Virus record (IMG/VR): IMGVR_UViG_3300037149_000105
Span: 1 to 64,000 of that record
From: a virus
Length of the DNA: 64,000 nt
Strand: one strand, 5' to 3'
Of the stretch, positions 8,090 to 59,199 are shown piece after piece. The notes under the pieces were generated by a model. It saw only the letters and a program-made list of their open reading frames with translations. It was not told the origin of the DNA and did not search any database. The translations under genes and the position numbers were made by a program. The stretch's first letter is position 1, and every line of letters starts with the position of its first letter.

Positions 8090-10333
<2,244 letters not shown>

Positions 10334-42495: not shown

Positions 42496-42752
42496 AGCCT
42501 CTAACAGGGGGTGGAAAAGCTGGGGACTTGGAATGACCTGAGAAGACCAAAAATGAATCAAACGGGAAAAGTTCCAGTTTTATGTGTTTTCGAGTAGTCT
42601 CAAATATGAAGAACCGCATGAACACTCAATTCCTTGTTTCACTGACCCTAAAATTCCCTATATAACTCCAGTAAAAAGAAGAAGAGAATGTATATATAAT
42701 ATTATTGTACTCTTTATCTCTAAAAGGATTTTGAAAAAGGAAGGAGGAAATT

Positions 42753-44135
42753 TTGTTCAGAAAATCTTCGAAGGGAGTGGACTTCCGGTATCAACCTAAG
42801 ATGAAGAAAATTTCCAGGACTGTCCTTTTGACCTCCCCAGGTAGTTTTCCGGCACTGCCGGAGCCTGCCGGGTACTTCCGCAAGGGGGAGAAGTGGTTCT
42901 GGTACCAATCTGCTTCGACCGGAATCAAATGCGAGGGTGATTGGATGCATGATCGCCGCAGTAATGCGCTTCGCAGCACTGGCTCTGGTGGCATCTTTCA
43001 GGAACTTCGCCAGGAGACAGACTATCAGGATGAGGGGGGCAGCATCGTCTTCCAAGCACCCTTTGATGAGTCGGACTACTCTGAACGGACTCTGCGGTTG
43101 AGAGAAGTGATCAGGCTGCCCCTGGGGGCTTCGAGAGCCCTCTACCATTATTTTGACACCTATCAGGATGTATGGAATTGCTTGGTTCATCTAGACCGTT
43201 CGGGAGTCCTCATCAAAGCTAATACCGGAGACCCCTCAGAGAGAAAGATTCGTCGGGATTACGTCAACCGCCGCAGTCAATCCACTCACCCACTTCGTCT
43301 GAAAAAGCAATCCAGGGTGGGGTCCATTCCCATCAGTTCTGAAATTCGAACGGAACTTAAGCAGATGGTGGGTTTAGATTGGCGGTGCGTCATATCCATG
43401 CGGCTTCTTCGATGGGGGAAGAGGGTAATCTTAGCCTACACCCATAAAGAAACTAGGATTCATGAGGTCAACTTGGAACACCGCAGTATTAATTCCTGCC
43501 GTGACCCACGCTTATGTGATATGGGTATATGTTTCAGCCCCAATGGGATGACTGTGCAGATTCAGAATCCCACTGAAGACCGGCAGGGGAGCTTTGTTCC
43601 CAAAGCCAAACTCACCAAGCAATATATCAATCAACTTGTAGCTCAAATGGTTGGAAAGATAAGGGTTGTAGCAATAGACCCAATCTGCCCTAGCGGTTTG
43701 AACGACATTAAGACTTACCTAACACGTAAGCTCAGGGCTCTACAGGCGGAAGGTGCCATGGAGTTCCGATCACCCAAGCTGGTCTCGTTGGGTGCGAAGT
43801 ACAAAGACCATCCTCAGCATCATCCGCTGCACTTACATGTGTGGCAGAGGAATCTGATGAAGGAATGGTTTGACTACTCGTTAATCTTGGGACTAACTGG
43901 AAGGCCCGTTCTGGTTCGGGAGGTAAATGGAACTCTGATTGGAGGAGACAGCCAACAGGTTATAAATCCGCTTACCCGAGCGAATCACGCCATCCAAACG
44001 GCTTTGGCTAAGATGGACTTGTGGCACGGTGCCACATTCCTACGTAGCAGAAGCTGGCAAAGAGTGCGATCAGCGTTCAACCGTCAACTATGTAAACTCC
44101 AGTCAAAAGAAGAAAATAATCATGAGGATAAGTAG
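42753..44135 (+). CDS. Degenerate TnpB/Cas12f-like protein with extra N-terminal domain, probably nuclease-dead
   Basis: Collinear TnpB-like segments: YFDTYQDVWNCLV, PLRLKKQS, CDMGI...PNG...IQNP (RuvC-I), QYINQLVAQMV...VVAID (RuvC-II), LHVWQRNLMKEWFDY...GRPVLV; no CxxC zinc finger and no RD.NAA.NI; AGGAGG before TTG. Confidence 0.6.
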   Translation: MFRKSSKGVDFRYQPKMKKISRTVLLTSPGSFPALPEPAGYFRKGEKWFWYQSASTGIKCEGDWMHDRRSNALRSTGSGGIFQELRQETDYQDEGGSIVFQAPFDESDYSERTLRLREVIRLPLGASRALYHYFDTYQDVWNCLVHLDRSGVLIKANTGDPSERKIRRDYVNRRSQSTHPLRLKKQSRVGSIPISSEIRTELKQMVGLDWRCVISMRLLRWGKRVILAYTHKETRIHEVNLEHRSINSCRDPRLCDMGICFSPNGMTVQIQNPTEDRQGSFVPKAKLTKQYINQLVAQMVGKIRVVAIDPICPSGLNDIKTYLTRKLRALQAEGAMEFRSPKLVSLGAKYKDHPQHHPLHLHVWQRNLMKEWFDYSLILGLTGRPVLVREVNGTLIGGDSQQVINPLTRANHAIQTALAKMDLWHGATFLRSRSWQRVRSAFNRQLCKLQSKEENNHEDK

Positions 44136-44337
44136 CCCCGTTCCTCTCGCAGAGTGTTACCGTATCCCCTTCCGGGGGTAACACCGCATCCCAACTCGGA
44201 CTTGCAGCCCAGTCTAGCTATGAAAAGGCCGCTCATTACCACGTAACACCCGCAACACTTACCGTAACGTTCGAAGAAATGCTGAAACCCCTCCTTTAAA
44301 GGAGGGTAGAATGAGTATTATCTAGGTATGCCACAAG
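44136..44337 (+). ncRNA. Putative omega-RNA-like scaffold plus guide
   Basis: Hairpin GTGTTAC/GTAACAC (44154-44184); 44284-44313 matches the tnpB right end at 24 of 30 positions; CTCATT (44232-44237) complements AATGAG (44310-44315). Confidence 0.6.
44313..44320 (+). promoter_or_regulatory. Putative phage promoter motif (G/C)AGTA(T/A)TA
   Basis: Also upstream of genes at 45174 (variant), 56712-56719(-), 59177, 61423 and 63992. Confidence 0.55.
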
Positions 44338-45131
44338 ACCTGAACTTAGAATGCAACGAGAAAATCCGAATCAACACGGATATGCTGAAGGACTACAACT
44401 TCTTCCACTTTCGGGATCTCGTCGCACTCCCCAAGATGAACGACCTGATATTTCGGAGTCGGTTGTTCAACACCTCTTGGCTCTCCCGCAAAGAGGCCCT
44501 ACAGAGGCTACAAAAGTTTTTTCTTGAGGGAAATCAATTCAGCCAAACTTTGAGTAAGAAAGAACTATCTCTGGAACGAGATTATCATATCTTGTTTGAT
44601 CCGAAGGAACAACTGGATTTGATACTAGCCGAAGAGGCAGACTTCCTTCCACAAAACCAGACGCACAAAGCACATGAGGATTATGCCCTACTGGCCGAAC
44701 TATCCCGACTTCAGGTCAGGGATGCACTCCCAGAGGATGGGGAGGCTATGTTCAAGGCAATCAACCTTACCCTTAGTAGGAAACTTGTAAAAGTTTCTCC
44801 AACTTGGCTCCCCTGTTATCTACAAATGGATGATGGAACCCTGGTTGGCCCCCAATTTTTTGCCCCTACGGCGGATGCGGCTGAGTCATTTGCTAAGATT
44901 GTTGATGATGCCTTATCCCAAGAATCTCCTTTGACTGAAAAAAAGACAGTTGGGCTGTATGCCCTTGGATTCCTCCCACCCGACCCCACTCTTCTGACTC
45001 AAAAAGTCATTGATGAAGAGTTTCAGATGGTTGAGAAAATTATTATCACAAAACGAGCCCGAGAAGTTCGGAGTGAAGAGCTTAACGAGCCTAGTTGGAA
45101 TCCTGAAAACATTACAACCGACGAACTGTGA
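44328..45131 (+). CDS. Hypothetical protein
   Basis: 267-aa ORF, no recognised motif. Confidence 0.7.
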   Translation: MPQDLNLECNEKIRINTDMLKDYNFFHFRDLVALPKMNDLIFRSRLFNTSWLSRKEALQRLQKFFLEGNQFSQTLSKKELSLERDYHILFDPKEQLDLILAEEADFLPQNQTHKAHEDYALLAELSRLQVRDALPEDGEAMFKAINLTLSRKLVKVSPTWLPCYLQMDDGTLVGPQFFAPTADAAESFAKIVDDALSQESPLTEKKTVGLYALGFLPPDPTLLTQKVIDEEFQMVEKIIITKRAREVRSEELNEPSWNPENITTDEL

Positions 45132-45199: not shown

Positions 45200-47815
45200 G
45201 TGATTGACAAAGTTTTGACCTATGAGGAACTCTATGACGACTACATCACAAGCAAAGGATTTGATGTAAGTAGTGCATCTGACTCAATTAAGAGTGAAGC
45301 GAATGCTTATGCCAAGTGTTATGATTGGTATATTGAGAAGATGAAGGTTTTACCAGAAAATGCAACTTTGGCATCTCATATTTGGGTAGATAAATATGCG
45401 CTTCACACACAATCTGGGGTTTGTTGCGAGCAAACTCCTGTTGAAATGTGGGATAGGATTTCTATCGTTTTAGCAAATGAAGAAATGAAAAGTTCCTCCA
45501 ATACCAAGGAATTCTCCTATTGGAAGGACAAGTTTTATGGTATCCTGGATGGTTGGAAATACTCACCACAGGGCTCAGGGCTGTTCGCCTTGGGAAACCC
45601 CTATGTGAAGGCCAGCAGCTCTAATTGCTTCACCCTACCCCCACCAGAGGACAACCTGGAATCCATTTTTGATACGGCCAAGAACATGGCTCGTATTTTT
45701 GCTTTTCGTGGCGGGGAGGGTCACGATATCAGTAATCTTCGCCCCCGTGGAGCCGCAACAAACAATGCAGCCCGGTCTTCCACCGGAGCGGCTAGCTTCA
45801 TGGACTTCTTCTCTTATACGACTGGGATGATTGGGCAGTCCGGTCGGAGAGGAGCTAATCTCCTGACTTTGCGAATCAACCATCCGGATATTGAGCTTTT
45901 CATTGAAGAAAAATCTGATATGAAGAAGCAACCCTTTTTTGATGAGTTGGCTTCGGTTGGGATCAACATCAACGATTACAAGTGGGCTGCGGTCGCGGAT
46001 CGTCTCAAGTCCACTTCTCACTCCAATGTCTCGGTTCGGATCAACGACCAGTTTATGAAGGCGGTCAAGGAAGATGGGGAGTATGAGCTTTGGTTTGAGT
46101 TCAGGGATAACGCCTACTCTCGAATTTCAAGAATGATTAAGGCCCGAGTCCTGTGGGACAAGTTGATGTACCATGCGTGGAGTTCGGCTGAACCGGGAAT
46201 TCTCAACTGGGACCACATCATCCGAGAGTCCCCAGCAGACCAATACACTAATCTTCCAGAGATTGAGTTCACCGATCCTGCAACCGGTGAGACCAAATGG
46301 GTCACCTATTCATTTGAAACCGTTGGACTTAATCCCTGCGCGGAGGAAGTATTAAGCGCTTATGACTCCTGCAACCTGGGTCTCTTTCTCCTCCCCACTT
46401 TTGTGAAGAATCCATACACTCCAGAGGCAAGCTTTGACTTCCAGGCTTATGCTGAAGTCGTTGCCATGGGGGTGAGAGCACAGGACAATATCAAATCATG
46501 GGATCTCCCGATTCTCCCACTTGAAGGTAATCGTATCGCTGGGGTGTTGGGTCGTCGCATCTCCGTAGGTAACACTGGATTGGCTGATGCGCTGGCCATG
46601 CTGGGTCTTCGTTATGATACGGATGAAGCAATACAAATGGCCGAGTCCATCTATGATTTCTTGGCCAATACTGCTTATCAAACTTCTGCTCTGTTGGCCG
46701 AGGAGAAGGGCAGCTTCCAGATTTTTGACTGGGAGCGTCATAAGAAATGCCCCTTCATTCAACGTCTGAGTAAAGAAACTCAGAAGATGATCCGGACCAA
46801 AGGTCTGCGAAATATTGGGTTACTCACTCAGTCCCCTGCGGGTTCCTTGAGCATTCTTATGCGAAACTGCACCTCTGGAATTGAGCCGCTTTTCTTGGCA
46901 GCAATGAATCGTAGCGTGAAAGTTCCCGGATCTGGAGATACGGTTCAATACATCGTCTATCACCAGGGAATCCAAGATGCGTTGAACATCAACCCCAATT
47001 TCGATATGTCTGTCTATGTGGAGGCCAACTCTATCGATTACCACAAGCGAATCAAGATGCAAGCAGCTATTCAGCAACACATTGACCATAGCATTAGTTC
47101 CACCGTTAATCTCCCAAATGATGCCACCGTTGAAGATGTGAGCCAGCTTTACATGGAAGCATATGATAACGGACTGAAAGGAATAACTGTTTATCGAGAT
47201 GGATGCCGTTCGGGAGTGCTAAATAGCATCAAGAAGGAAGTTGTAGACCCGATTGTTCGAAGAGAACGGCCTAAAACCACTGATATCAAGATTCACAAGG
47301 TCAAATACAAGGATAAACCCTGGTCCGTGCTGGTGGGGCTGGTTAATGGCACCCCCATTGAAGTATTTGCTGGAGTAGAAGAGGACACTCCCCTTCCCAA
47401 CAAATACTATAAGGCAGAACTTGTTAAAAAGTCACGAGGCCATTACTCTCTCACTGTATGGCTTAGCGAGGATGAAGAAAGTGATATTGTAAAAATTAGT
47501 AATATTGGCGCTCGTTTCCCTTCCCCGGAGGGTTTAGCACTTACTCGGTTTATCTCATTATCTCTTAGGAATGGCGTGATGGTTTCAGATATTTGTGAAC
47601 AGCTTCAAAAATCTTCAAACTCCCTTTTTGATTACCCCAGTGTGTTAAATCGAGTACTAAAAAACTACGTTCCTGATGAAGAGGCTATAGCTAAAGAACT
47701 AGCTAAAGGAGAAGTGTGTCCGCTTTGTGGGGCGGAGCTAGTGTTTAAACGAGAGAGTGGGTGTTTAGTTAAACTCTGTAGTTCTTGCAATTTTATGGAT
47801 TCTAAGTGTGGGTAG
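45200..47815 (+). CDS. nrdJ: Adenosylcobalamin-dependent (class II) ribonucleotide reductase
   Basis: SNCF, LRPRGA, GQSGRRGA, AEPGI, NPCAE, GLRN, TSGIEP, QQHIDHSISSTVNLP, KGITVYRDG; C-terminal domain with Zn ribbon. Confidence 0.92.
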   Translation: MIDKVLTYEELYDDYITSKGFDVSSASDSIKSEANAYAKCYDWYIEKMKVLPENATLASHIWVDKYALHTQSGVCCEQTPVEMWDRISIVLANEEMKSSSNTKEFSYWKDKFYGILDGWKYSPQGSGLFALGNPYVKASSSNCFTLPPPEDNLESIFDTAKNMARIFAFRGGEGHDISNLRPRGAATNNAARSSTGAASFMDFFSYTTGMIGQSGRRGANLLTLRINHPDIELFIEEKSDMKKQPFFDELASVGININDYKWAAVADRLKSTSHSNVSVRINDQFMKAVKEDGEYELWFEFRDNAYSRISRMIKARVLWDKLMYHAWSSAEPGILNWDHIIRESPADQYTNLPEIEFTDPATGETKWVTYSFETVGLNPCAEEVLSAYDSCNLGLFLLPTFVKNPYTPEASFDFQAYAEVVAMGVRAQDNIKSWDLPILPLEGNRIAGVLGRRISVGNTGLADALAMLGLRYDTDEAIQMAESIYDFLANTAYQTSALLAEEKGSFQIFDWERHKKCPFIQRLSKETQKMIRTKGLRNIGLLTQSPAGSLSILMRNCTSGIEPLFLAAMNRSVKVPGSGDTVQYIVYHQGIQDALNINPNFDMSVYVEANSIDYHKRIKMQAAIQQHIDHSISSTVNLPNDATVEDVSQLYMEAYDNGLKGITVYRDGCRSGVLNSIKKEVVDPIVRRERPKTTDIKIHKVKYKDKPWSVLVGLVNGTPIEVFAGVEEDTPLPNKYYKAELVKKSRGHYSLTVWLSEDEESDIVKISNIGARFPSPEGLALTRFISLSLRNGVMVSDICEQLQKSSNSLFDYPSVLNRVLKNYVPDEEAIAKELAKGEVCPLCGAELVFKRESGCLVKLCSSCNFMDSKCG

Positions 47816-47816
47816 G

Positions 47817-48533
47817 ATGAAAAGTGGGATTAGAGACCTAACAGGGTTAATAGTGGGAAAACTGACGGTGGTATCCCCATCTTCACGAAGGAGTAAAAAT
47901 GGTAGCTGCTACTGGGTATGTCAATGTTCCTGTGGTAATCAAGTAGAGATTCAGAGCCAGCGGCTTACTTACTCTGGGAGAAAGACATCTTCTTGTGGGT
48001 GCTCACGAGTAGCCCCCTTAGAAGGAAAAACATTCGGAAGGCTCACAGTCTTGGAACGAGCATCTAAAGTAGGAGGGAGGGACACCTTTTGGAAATGTAT
48101 GTGCTCCTGTGGTAACGAGGTCGTTGTCTCAACCTCTCATTTAAAAGCTAGCACTGCTTCGTGTGGTTGCTTACAGAGGGATTGTGTAAGAGATTATTTT
48201 AGACACTACAGAAAATCTTCTGGCAGAGATGAGAATACCCTTCTCACTTCAATTGATGAGCAGCTAAGGGGGGTGATAAAATCTTCTGGAGTTAAACGTA
48301 AAGTCTTACTACGAGATGGGTTTAAATGTCAAATTTGTGGGGACCATTATAATTTAAGAGTCCATCACATTATCCCCTTAAGTAAAGATAACACAAAGGC
48401 CATTCTTATGTCTAATTTGATAACTTTGTGCCATTACTGTCACAAAATATCTGCACATGATGGGCACAACCATAAACTAAATCCTTTTGTTCAGAAATTC
48501 TTTATATCAATTACCACGAAGGAGAAGTTATGA
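47817..48533 (+). CDS. Free-standing HNH homing endonuclease
   Basis: Two G...G.LTV...W.C.CSCGN...SCGC repeats plus RDGFKCQICG...VHHI...NLITLC..CH. Confidence 0.88.
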   Translation: MKSGIRDLTGLIVGKLTVVSPSSRRSKNGSCYWVCQCSCGNQVEIQSQRLTYSGRKTSSCGCSRVAPLEGKTFGRLTVLERASKVGGRDTFWKCMCSCGNEVVVSTSHLKASTASCGCLQRDCVRDYFRHYRKSSGRDENTLLTSIDEQLRGVIKSSGVKRKVLLRDGFKCQICGDHYNLRVHHIIPLSKDNTKAILMSNLITLCHYCHKISAHDGHNHKLNPFVQKFFISITTKEKL

Positions 48534-55142: not shown

Positions 55143-55635
55143 CTTTACTGCCTCCCTGCTTCATCATATAGCCTATGGGCTAGATATTGGCGGGGAGGTT
55201 CATGATTTTGAACCACAAAATGCCAAAGATCTCCGCTATCGGAACAGCCCCGATGGCGGATTTAACGGTGGGAGCCCCAATCCACAGCAGTATACGCAGG
55301 GGCCAGAGGCCCAAACCCTCCCCCCTGATGCTCCGTTGTATCATGGCACTACCTTGAATGATTGGAATGAGGGTGGGGCCACCAAACTTAGAGTTTCCAC
55401 CAATATTGAAGAGGCAAAAGCTGATGCAAAAACCGCTGCTGAAGGTGAAAATGCCCCAATTGTGGTTATGATCAAGTTTGGAGACCTGGGTGAGTATGAA
55501 TTGGAGCCTGATTCAACCCATTCGGAGGTTCATGAAGGGGTCTCCTGGCAGGAGTGCCTGAAGGATACAGGGGTATTTTGTATCGTCGGAGACATTGACT
55601 CCTTGAAACCCAATTTTAAACTGGTCAACGGTTGA
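55126..55635 (+). CDS. Hypothetical protein with possible ADP-ribosyltransferase-like fold
   Basis: LYHGT...VSTNIEEA...A...PIVVMI; the stop codon is supplied by the tnpB right end. Confidence 0.5.
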   Translation: MSRLPNFTASLLHHIAYGLDIGGEVHDFEPQNAKDLRYRNSPDGGFNGGSPNPQQYTQGPEAQTLPPDAPLYHGTTLNDWNEGGATKLRVSTNIEEAKADAKTAAEGENAPIVVMIKFGDLGEYELEPDSTHSEVHEGVSWQECLKDTGVFCIVGDIDSLKPNFKLVNG

Positions 55636-56755
55636 CATCCTCCCCTCCCTAAACGGAGGGGATTCCTAGCCGTAGAGTCTGATGTCCCAGACCGAGACGG
55701 AGTATATTTTGAGCAGCGTTTACATCTCTATTATGAGACGCTCCGCATTCAGAGCATACCCAATCTCTTACCGACAGCCCACTTAGTCCTTTCGGGCCGG
55801 TGAGGGCGGCACAGCCGCCACACCGCTGGGTTGTCCAAGCTTCATTAACGATTCGGACTACCTTGCCAAGCTTAATAGCTTTATAAGACAAGAAGTTCAG
55901 AACCATACTGATACCCGCATCCAAGGTAGATTTGCAAGCTTTCAAATGTAAATCCCCAACTATGATTAAATCATAGGAATTAATCAGATTTGTGGTCAAT
56001 TTGTGCAAATAATCTTTGCGTTGATTTTTGATTCGGGCGTGAATAGATTTTGTTTGATTCTTATGTTTAGCTCTCTGAGCGGTTGCAAGCCTAGCTTGCG
56101 ATTTGTAATAAAACTTTTCATTAGAATAACTGATCGAATCAGAGCTAGTCGCTATGGATTTCAAACCTAAATCAACTCCTACTTGAGTTTTAAACTCTAC
56201 CAGTTGGGAGACTTTCCCAATCTCAACTTGCAAGTTTATGAACCAATTCCCCTTGGAATCCTGATTAAAACTACCAGTCCTGATATCAGCTTCGCTGAGA
56301 TTAATGGCGTTATAATGAGAATCGAAGAATTTAAACTTATGTTTACAATAGATGAACAAGTTATTTTTAAATCTCAAGGCGGAAGCTTTGAATGGTATCC
56401 ACCCGAGAACGCATTTATAGCTCCGCCAGCGAAGCTTTTGTTTCTTGAATTGTTTGCGCCTAGTAATATATTCTTTACATATGGATTGGACGGTTGTAGA
56501 GTTCAAACCCAATTCGCCCGCACAGCCAGCCGTCTGGTTGTCAAGTTCATACTCGCTGGCCCATTTCGAATACTTCTTGAGTTGGTTATAACTCTGTTCA
56601 TTACAATAGTTCCATACCAGATTGACCGCAGAACTCATCCGAATCAAGATTTTTCTTGAAACGGAGTCCTTGAGTCTGTAATGGAGAGTAATAATCATGT
56701 GTGTATCTATTTAATACTCAGAAAGTTTGATTTTGCTCATGGCACAAAGTATCCG
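55632..56755 (-). mobile_element. Non-autonomous IS200/IS605-family element (tnpB only)
   Basis: Right end GAATCCCCTCCGTTTAGGGAGGGGAGGATGTCAA is clear; left limit inferred from TTAC at 56756-56759(-) and is less certain; no tnpA. Confidence 0.65.
55649..56698 (-). CDS. tnpB: RNA-guided endonuclease TnpB
   Basis: VNLVWNYC, VGVDLGLK, RKDYLHKLTT, CGGC/CSEC zinc finger, HNRDVNAAQNIL. Confidence 0.95.
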   Translation of the reverse strand: MIITLHYRLKDSVSRKILIRMSSAVNLVWNYCNEQSYNQLKKYSKWASEYELDNQTAGCAGELGLNSTTVQSICKEYITRRKQFKKQKLRWRSYKCVLGWIPFKASALRFKNNLFIYCKHKFKFFDSHYNAINLSEADIRTGSFNQDSKGNWFINLQVEIGKVSQLVEFKTQVGVDLGLKSIATSSDSISYSNEKFYYKSQARLATAQRAKHKNQTKSIHARIKNQRKDYLHKLTTNLINSYDLIIVGDLHLKACKSTLDAGISMVLNFLSYKAIKLGKVVRIVNEAWTTQRCGGCAALTGPKGLSGLSVRDWVCSECGASHNRDVNAAQNILRLGLGHQTLRLGIPSV

Positions 56756-56793: not shown

Positions 56794-59172
<2,379 letters not shown>

Positions 59173-59199
59173 GTCCGAGTAATAGATAGGGGAGGCCGT

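Follow-up and report, generated by a model that had tools for sequence, protein, structure and literature searches.

A deeply diverged, predicted nuclease-dead TnpB-like protein with its own pseudoknotted RNA in a clade of large uncultivated phages

The window analysed here is a 64,000-nucleotide stretch of viral DNA (IMG/VR virus record IMGVR_UViG_3300037149_000105, positions 1 to 64,000) and forms part of a 147-kb viral record that was judged ~51% complete. At positions 42753-44135 of its plus strand lies a gene for a 460-amino-acid (aa) protein which, on reading the sequence, had been proposed to be a domesticated, nuclease-dead derivative of the transposon-encoded nuclease TnpB (hereafter the original prediction). 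That proposal is upheld by the fold of the protein, by the Ala and Ile residues found at two catalytic positions of its RuvC domain, by purifying selection, by fixed synteny and by a cognate RNA encoded next to the gene. What is new is the combination of a deeply diverged, dead TnpB with a place in the phage core and a pseudoknotted RNA of its own, and it probably represents a new branch of RNA-guided regulators. The features of the gene and of the encoded protein are the following, all on the plus strand.

42741-42747, plus strand: Shine-Dalgarno (SD) sequence AAGGAGG, 5 nt 5' of the TTG start codon (direct sequence reading)
42753-44135, plus strand: gene for the 460-aa, predicted nuclease-dead TnpB-like protein (open reading frame, homologues, TnpB fold, dN/dS)
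42753-43067, plus strand: N-terminal extension, residues 1 to ~105, with motifs LPEPAGYFRKGE and GI.PE.R.ETDY.D (conservation, dN/dS)
43080-44087, plus strand: WED-REC-RuvC core, residues ~110-445 (model confidence mostly >85, VIA-align, hhalign)
43518-43520, plus strand: Asp256, the kept RuvC-I Asp (CDMGI), aligned with the invariant D176 of IDLG in TnpB
43674-43679, plus strand: Ile308-Asp309, RuvC-II site; hhalign places I308 on G248 and D309 on D249 of VVGD in the resident TnpB family
43875-43952, plus strand: zinc-finger replacement (ILGLTGRP... beta hairpin), opposite CPxCG...CxxCG of relatives P0024-P0040 and CSxC...CsxCG of TnpB
43977-43985, plus strand: Arg409-Ala410-Asn411, degenerate RuvC-III (RD to RA), R409 on R324 and A410 on the catalytic D325 of RDvNAA

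The 460 codons of the open reading frame (ORF), its TTG start and the AAGGAGG 5 nt upstream were all read directly, in agreement with the original prediction of an intact frame and ribosome binding site, the latter being a strong one. The same start codon and N-terminus are found in homologues that are 77-78% identical to the protein. A search of 5.8 billion proteins returned 13 homologues with 41-100% identity, and a profile search of 1.8 billion representatives returned 33. No match to the protein was obtained in Pfam at E-values up to 1, including the families OrfB_IS605 (PF01385) and Cas12f1-like_TNB (PF07282), in PHROGs, or in sequence and profile searches of the PDB. The ORF had no tblastn match in 50,697 phage records, and cellular relatives of the protein were absent from the genomes of ~185,000 species. 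The ratio of nonsynonymous to synonymous substitution rates (dN/dS), calculated against homologues with 57-78% identity, was 0.16-0.17 over the whole ORF, with 0.14-0.18 in its core (residues 110-445) and 0.25-0.29 in residues 2-100. These values rule out neutral decay, the outcome named beforehand as speaking against domestication, and the ORF is a real gene under purifying selection.

To compare the protein with known structures we used an AlphaFold model built on the alignment of the 13 sequences. The model was confident for residues ~110-420, where most 10-residue blocks had a predicted local distance difference test score (pLDDT) of 85-95, and poor for residues 1-88. The first nine Foldseek matches in the PDB were all TnpB, Cas12f or Fanzor2 proteins (E 2e-4 to 1e-2), with Cas12f1, Fanzor2, AsCas12f, a natural dCas12f, ISDra2 TnpB and ISFba1 TnpB as members. 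With VIA-align, a structure comparison that is independent of Foldseek, the best match was ISDra2 TnpB (Z 11.1, root-mean-square deviation 8.7 over 249 residues, model residues 112-423 on chain residues 1-378). Cas12k, Fanzor2, ISFba1 TnpB, Cas12m2 and dCas12f were also matched over their full length, whereas matches to the RuvC domain only reached Z 8.9 or less, clearly below the value for ISDra2 TnpB. Structure searches of BFVD led to TnpB-like transposases from phages and giant viruses and those of the ESM Atlas to clusters with OrfB_IS605 and TNB domains, which brings the number of structure libraries with TnpB, Cas12f or Fanzor matches to four. The WED/RuvC fold that the original prediction had proposed to look for by AlphaFold and Foldseek is thus found.

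At the level of sequence profiles, hhalign aligned a 21-member superfamily alignment with a profile of 18 ordinary TnpBs at an E-value of 1.5e-4 over 282 collinear columns. The VWN helix, the WED motif RR..PLR.KS..R..SIP, the DMGI and VVAID motifs and the C-terminal helix are all collinear with TnpB landmarks, which bears out the claimed TnpB motif order, here from about residue 110 onward. Judged from the model, the similarity of the protein to TnpB is far beyond chance, with the four structure libraries in agreement, and we regard descent from TnpB as very probable. A relative is present for comparison in the same window: an intact solo tnpB at 55649-56698 on the minus strand, with Pfam matches to OrfB_IS605 (4e-13) and Cas12f1-like_TNB (7.5e-18), whose element spans ~55632-56755 in the replication block. 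We refer to its product as the resident TnpB.

The Asp-Glu-Asp triad of the RuvC domain is incomplete in the 460-aa protein. Asp256 is kept at the RuvC-I position and is invariant in the near family, though not in distant relatives that carry a zinc finger. The canonical RuvC-II Glu slot is occupied by the hydrophobic Ile308 and followed by a conserved Asp309; the earlier reading that this Glu had become Asp was off by one, the Asp being the residue after the Glu slot in the hhalign alignment. The RuvC-III motif, described earlier as gone, is mutated and not deleted. Its helix and Arg are kept, and the catalytic Asp is replaced by Ala410, which is invariant in 21/21 aligned family members. The zinc finger is lost, as had been noticed: LGLTGRP aligns with its first CxxC, and distant relatives of ~20% identity (P0024-P0040) retain CPxCG...CxxCG at this place. 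Since these zinc-finger-bearing relatives already have Ala at the RuvC-III position, with a variable residue at RuvC-I, inactivation seems to predate zinc-finger loss, and the order of domestication steps would be inactivation first and loss of the zinc finger later. The suggestion of an independent domestication is plausible, as the protein has no detectable similarity to TnpB or TldR models and the zinc-finger-bearing relatives are already RA. The genomic context examined for such relatives, locus L023, adjoins an ordinary resolvase and is uninformative; its recombinase was considered as an IS607 TnpA and rejected, being an ordinary resolvase with a C-terminal helix-turn-helix.

Having lost its zinc finger and two catalytic residues, the Glu of RuvC-II and the Asp of RuvC-III, the protein should bind rather than cut, and it is most likely dead as a nuclease. 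It is not an active TnpB, since tests of the triad, the zinc finger and mobility each gave a negative answer. We also considered that it is still a nuclease, acting on DNA or on its own RNA through a non-canonical D256/D309/E333 site, as a homing or defence-type RNA-guided enzyme. These three residues are invariant in the near family, and the resident TnpB family suggests a precedent: it has Gly at the canonical RuvC-II Glu, and a different Glu (E286), invariant in that family, directly precedes the zinc finger. This points to a relocated catalytic residue and hence to the existence of relocated sites in the superfamily. However, all family members have Ala in place of the RuvC-III Asp, and the relatives with a zinc finger have Val for E333 and vary at D256. 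Moreover, no conserved acid stands where the resident family has its alternative Glu, and the zinc finger is lost. A retained nuclease activity therefore appears highly improbable.

Outside the core, the claim of a new N-terminal domain stands in part. Residues 1 to ~105 form a conserved extension under constraint (dN/dS ~0.29), but one with no confident fold: it was modelled at pLDDT 30-55 and had no fold or family match. The extension is kept in the nearest seven homologues (including P0002-P0007) and in a divergent group (P0017/18/20), and is missing from P0010-P0013. The C-terminus is extended and not truncated, with a conserved tail WHGATFL...RVRSAF added. The further suggestion that the N- and C-terminal segments are effector domains found no support, given the low pLDDT of the N-terminal segment and its lack of matches.

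The gene is the first one of the rightward, replication block and lies at the strand switch between the virion and replication blocks, a position that had been noted before and is borne out by gene matches on both sides. The left block, on the minus strand, has tail-fibre, baseplate and virion matches, and the right block contains a gene for a 267-aa protein, ribonucleotide reductase (RNR), an HNH endonuclease, an RNA ligase and helicases. Relatives with 41-78% identity have the gene in the same slot, ~300 nt past the virion block and ~200 nt before a 267-270-aa gene and RNR; one of these relatives sits on a 212-kb contig. The synteny check across related phages thus holds in loci down to 41% identity. 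In the 147-kb record the gene is single-copy and shows no transposon features, and its constant slot in diverged phages likewise speaks against residence in an IS200/IS605 or IS607 element. It is a non-mobile, fixed syntenic core gene of a clade of large uncultivated phages. One member, homologue P0011 (loci L013 and L014), is placed differently: its neighbours are genes for an integrase, an AAA ATPase and HU, and the 267-aa neighbour gene is absent from these surroundings.

The gap 3' of the stop codon (44136-44327) has blocks that are conserved among loci whose proteins are 41-46% identical. They correspond to an RNA of ~165 nt on the same strand as the gene, in which hairpin A is followed by hairpin B and its H-type pseudoknot, then by a variable region and finally by a 3' hairpin. 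Its parts, and the comparison element from the resident tnpB, are as follows.

44154-44184, plus strand: RNA hairpin A, with a 7-8 bp outer stem, a 4-5 nt 5' internal loop and a CCCC/GGGG inner stem
44198-44215, plus strand: RNA hairpin B, with GGACU, an 8-nt loop, AGUCU and an invariant CCAGUC
44227-44232, plus strand: 3' strand of the pseudoknot (GGCCGC with GCAGCC in the loop of hairpin B), offset 9-11 nt in all loci
44233-44288, plus strand: variable middle region of the RNA, of lineage-dependent length
44289-44306, plus strand: RNA hairpin C (CCCUCC, UUUAAA, GGAGGG); a G/C hairpin is present here in every syntenic locus
55636-55665, minus strand: for comparison, the hairpin that closes the omegaRNA region of the intact tnpB on its 3' side

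Because MAFFT put the RNA stems out of register, the RNA was aligned with Infernal and explicit helix scripts. A covariance model built from three close sequences located the RNA at the expected place in L011, L018 and L015, and the model rebuilt from its matches found the non-seed locus L017 at an E-value of 1.8e-7. In the resulting alignment 97% of the cells pair, compared to 35-47% with the partners slid, and double changes occur in 8/16 pairs; 0/500 shuffles reached the observed values. The outer stem of hairpin A has double changes in 6/7 pairs with 100% of the cells paired, and the architecture of this hairpin is constant across five different outer-stem sequences. For the pseudoknot, the sum over cognate loop-strand combinations was 39, against a mean of 23.8 and a maximum of 35 for swapped combinations (0/265), and position-restricted shuffles combined to a Fisher p of 2e-6. 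The G.U pairs place the RNA on the plus strand. The A/B/pseudoknot module of the window is 92% identical to that of L005, whereas third codon positions of the gene are 64% identical; in comparisons to L005 and L004 the module has 89-92% identity and the variable middle region 73-75%. Hairpin C is 39% identical to that of L005, and its pairing is nevertheless kept. A long-range pairing CUCAUU/AAUGAG is present in the window lineage and was not counted as conserved, no equivalent being seen by inspection in L011 and L018. Pattern hits for hairpin B in the viral contigs L020 and L021 were discarded as chance matches within coding sequence.

The non-syntenic locus L013 has the A/B/pseudoknot module too, with an extra compensatory change in the pseudoknot relative to L001. 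There the called ORF runs into the module, a terminator hairpin follows the module, and the downstream gene and promoter differ. Since the module stays in L013 despite these differences, the RNA goes with the protein gene rather than with its neighbour. We are highly confident that the structured RNA is real and linked to the dead-tnpB-like gene. The 3' part of the RNA resembles an omegaRNA end: positions 44284-44313 (hairpin C and tail) are identical at 24/30 positions to the terminal hairpin of the intact tnpB (55665-55636), a value reached by 0/200 shuffles, the highest of which gave 22. The end of the intact tnpB element has weak matches to HgcC and sot-RNA in Rfam.

Some further observations concern these RNAs and their loci. 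The stop codon of the intact tnpB falls in the loop of its terminal omegaRNA hairpin. Both arms of hairpin A are found a second time, in swapped order, within the variable middle region (TTACCGTA, GTAACACC; 44157-44164 and 44259-44266, 44178-44185 and 44243-44250), which would permit alternative pairings or reflect partial duplication. The ORF call of P0011 (411 aa; L013 6001-7236, also in L014) runs through the RNA module, and the long C-terminal tail of low complexity probably comes from translating non-coding RNA; similar-looking tails occur in several zinc-finger-bearing relatives. At L010 593-816, a P0017-type gene is followed by a highly structured gap of ~220 nt with a hairpin before the block GAGTAATATAC, and the downstream gene is a different one, encoding a 614-aa protein that starts with a CxxC motif.

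The RNA is bordered on its 3' side by a promoter-like motif and the next gene.

44313-44327, plus strand: phage promoter-type motif GAGTATTA..TAGG, immediately 5' of the next gene and a possible junction of scaffold and guide
44328-45131, plus strand: syntenic gene for a 267-aa protein, without SD, located after the dead-tnpB-like gene in all syntenic loci

A 17-nt block AGTATTATCTAGGTATG (44314-44330) is unique in the window and conserved in relatives. As this block is the promoter motif, the structured RNA fills the space from the ORF to the next promoter. The core [GC]AGTAWTA occurs 15-35 nt before many gene starts over the 147 kb, usually followed by an SD sequence, and the consensus (t)TCT-GAGTAWTA has 39 matches in the record compared to ~18 expected. 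Promoter-like matches are located for example at 59177, 61423, 63992, 64938, 73084, 75795, 92471, 101024, 105087 (minus strand) and 142940 (minus strand). From this distribution we read the core as the phage promoter consensus. The motif GAGTATTA is also found 21 nt before the start of the intact tnpB. The dead-tnpB-like gene has no such motif on the plus strand and may thus belong to another class, one that is expressed earlier. The start of the 267-aa gene lies 15 nt past its promoter motif and has no SD sequence, so its mRNA may be leaderless or nearly so. The model of the 267-aa protein was good (pLDDT 88, predicted template modelling score 0.83) but matched no known fold or family (highest Z 3.1, no Foldseek E below 0.2, ESM Atlas uninformative).

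This arrangement raises the question of whether the RNA acts with the protein at all. It might be a cis-element unrelated to it, such as a stabiliser in the 3' untranslated region, a processing site or a leader, and the protein a guide-free DNA or RNA binder derived from TnpB. Hairpin C and its tail do lie right beside a true phage promoter motif, neither Rfam nor omegaRNA families gave a match, and the RNA model gave no confident match at the loci of zinc-finger-bearing relatives. However, in L013 and L014, with their different downstream gene and promoter, the A/B/pseudoknot module is still found directly after or overlapping the end of the ORF. The position on the same strand immediately 3' of the gene is the arrangement of TnpB and TldR genes, and the 3' hairpin resembles a real omegaRNA end. 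We consider an unrelated cis-element rather unlikely.

In TnpB, the WED-REC-RuvC architecture holds the omegaRNA and the RNA-DNA heteroduplex. We lean towards the protein being a TldR-like RNA-guided DNA binder, for which the RNA would be scaffold and guide in DNA binding and transcription control. In this reading a dead member of the TnpB/Cas12f superfamily has been exapted to a fixed core gene while keeping the WED-REC-RuvC architecture. The RNA would be released by cleavage from the transcript of the gene and serve the protein as a bound scaffold, the sequence at or after its 3' end would guide the complex to complementary DNA beside a target-adjacent motif (TAM), and this binding would alter transcription in the way of TldRs. 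One candidate target is the promoter next to the RNA, since the scaffold extends just up to it.

Judged by the intact tnpB element, the scaffold-guide junction would fall on the promoter before the 267-aa gene. In a more far-reaching version the guide is this 3' junction itself, that is, the middle-promoter consensus of the phage (GAGTAWTA..TAG, present before many replication-block genes). The early-expressed dead TnpB with its RNA would recognise a class of promoters by short-guide RNA-DNA pairing and serve as an RNA-programmed switch, either a repressor or a sigma-like recruiter, in the early-to-middle transition of a jumbo-type phage. We regard this version as speculative and quite unlikely; if it is true, the protein would be a core factor of the transcription programme and not an accessory regulator.

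Several results weigh against an RNA-guided, nuclease-dead TnpB derivative and were taken into account. No guide and no target were found for the RNA: 16-mers from 44306-44343 had no second site in the 147 kb beyond other promoter copies, k-mer searches for a second target of the RNA 3' region gave chance matches and other promoter copies only, and the scaffold itself is present in one copy, with no second one in the 147-kb record. No Rfam family matches the RNA of the dead gene, its A/B module is unlike the resident omegaRNA in sequence, and folds of single sequences are no more stable than those of shuffles (z -0.5 to -1.3). The alignment in which covariation was scored was fitted by the model itself and covers only ~6-7 lineages. 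On the protein side, the profile similarity to TnpB in hhalign was moderate (probability 51%), and it took the wider alignment and a TnpB profile to see it, as the near family gave no significant hhalign result with the resident TnpB alone. The invariant D256, D309 and E333 make some metal-dependent activity conceivable, and the RuvC-III helix is retained, unlike in the described TldRs.

In an alternative reading the protein binds the structured RNA without DNA guiding and acts at the RNA level, for example in autoregulation of the stability or 3' processing of its own mRNA, in control of read-through into the replication genes downstream, or as a decoy or chaperone for RNA. The linkage of RNA and gene is tight, yet no guide or target is visible, and control of read-through is conceivable with the scaffold placed between the ORF and the next promoter and no terminator in the window. 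On the other hand, the REC and WED parts, which contact the heteroduplex and the TAM duplex in TnpB, are kept and were modelled confidently, and all characterised dead relatives (TldR, dCas12f, Cas12k and Cas12m) still target DNA. A role confined to RNA is therefore fairly unlikely, and RNA-guided DNA binding remains our preferred reading.

The closest functional parallel are the TldRs, which have RuvC mutations, have lost the zinc finger, and use an adjacent guide RNA with a 9-16 nt guide against promoter targets (Wiegand et al., 10.1101/2023.11.30.569447); the guide of oppF-type TldRs is ~9 nt. The protein described here resembles TldRs (10.1101/2023.11.30.569447; Xiao et al., 10.64898/2026.09.22.753285) in its derivation from TnpB, the loss of RuvC catalytic residues and zinc finger, the lack of transposon features, the fixed link to non-transposon genes and the same-strand structured RNA adjoining the gene, and some TldRs are phage-borne as well. 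It differs in that TldRs were found as TnpB homologues, whereas no similarity to the TnpB Pfam models is detectable here, which makes membership of the described fliC-, oppF- and csrA-associated TldR clades unlikely. Furthermore, its C-terminus is not truncated, with the RuvC-III helix kept and the WHGATFL...RVRSAF tail present, and it has the extra ~105-aa N-terminal extension. This is moreover a syntenic core gene of large, apparently non-temperate uncultivated phages and not a gene of temperate enterobacterial ones. As to the guide, a covarying, pseudoknotted, scaffold-like RNA is linked to the gene, and no guide segment was delimited.

With TnpB and omegaRNA of IS200/IS605 elements (ISDra2, PDB 8h1j and 8exa; the resident copy) the protein shares the WED-REC-RuvC fold and collinear motifs, a pseudoknotted RNA encoded on the 3' side of the gene, and a 3' hairpin identical at 24/30 positions to the resident end. 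In contrast to these systems, it lacks the catalytic Glu and Asp as well as a zinc finger, its RNA is in most loci encoded entirely past the stop codon rather than inside the ORF, the A/B module is unrelated to the resident omegaRNA, and the gene is single-copy in fixed synteny, with neither insertion sequence ends nor mobility. The dCas12f that works with sigma-E (PMC13472631), Cas12k and Cas12m (PMC10442227) are compact, TnpB-derived proteins with RNA-based DNA binding without cutting, and dCas12f (9n9c), Cas12k (8bd5) and Cas12m2 (8hhl) are full-length structural matches of the 460-aa protein; here, by contrast, a CRISPR array is absent and neither a sigma factor nor a transposition partner is encoded close by. 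We found no published description of such a dead-TnpB clade in large phages.

A few other genes in the window deserve mention. The ORF of the HNH endonuclease (47808-48533, plus strand) overlaps the end of the RNR gene and looks like a free-standing homing endonuclease insertion, since relatives have dUTPase directly after RNR. A 792-aa collagen-repeat protein with triple-helix repeats is encoded at 56794-59172 (plus strand) within the replication-side block, and a 747-aa protein at 8090-10333 (minus strand) matches collagen-like tail fibres.

That dead TnpB derivatives (TldRs) and dead Cas12f proteins serve in nature as RNA-guided transcription factors is a recent insight, and the phage examples known so far are accessory genes of temperate phages. 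The present gene indicates that exaptation of dead TnpB also exists in a lineage too diverged for sequence models. The zinc-finger-bearing branch, which already lacks the catalytic Asp, hints at the order of domestication steps. Because an RNA partner with a well-supported pseudoknot has been kept, RNA dependence is directly testable, and the compact pair of protein and RNA is a candidate scaffold for programmable DNA binding. The fixation of a dead TnpB as a core gene at the virion/replication boundary of large phages suggests that it has a role in the phage's own gene-expression programme.

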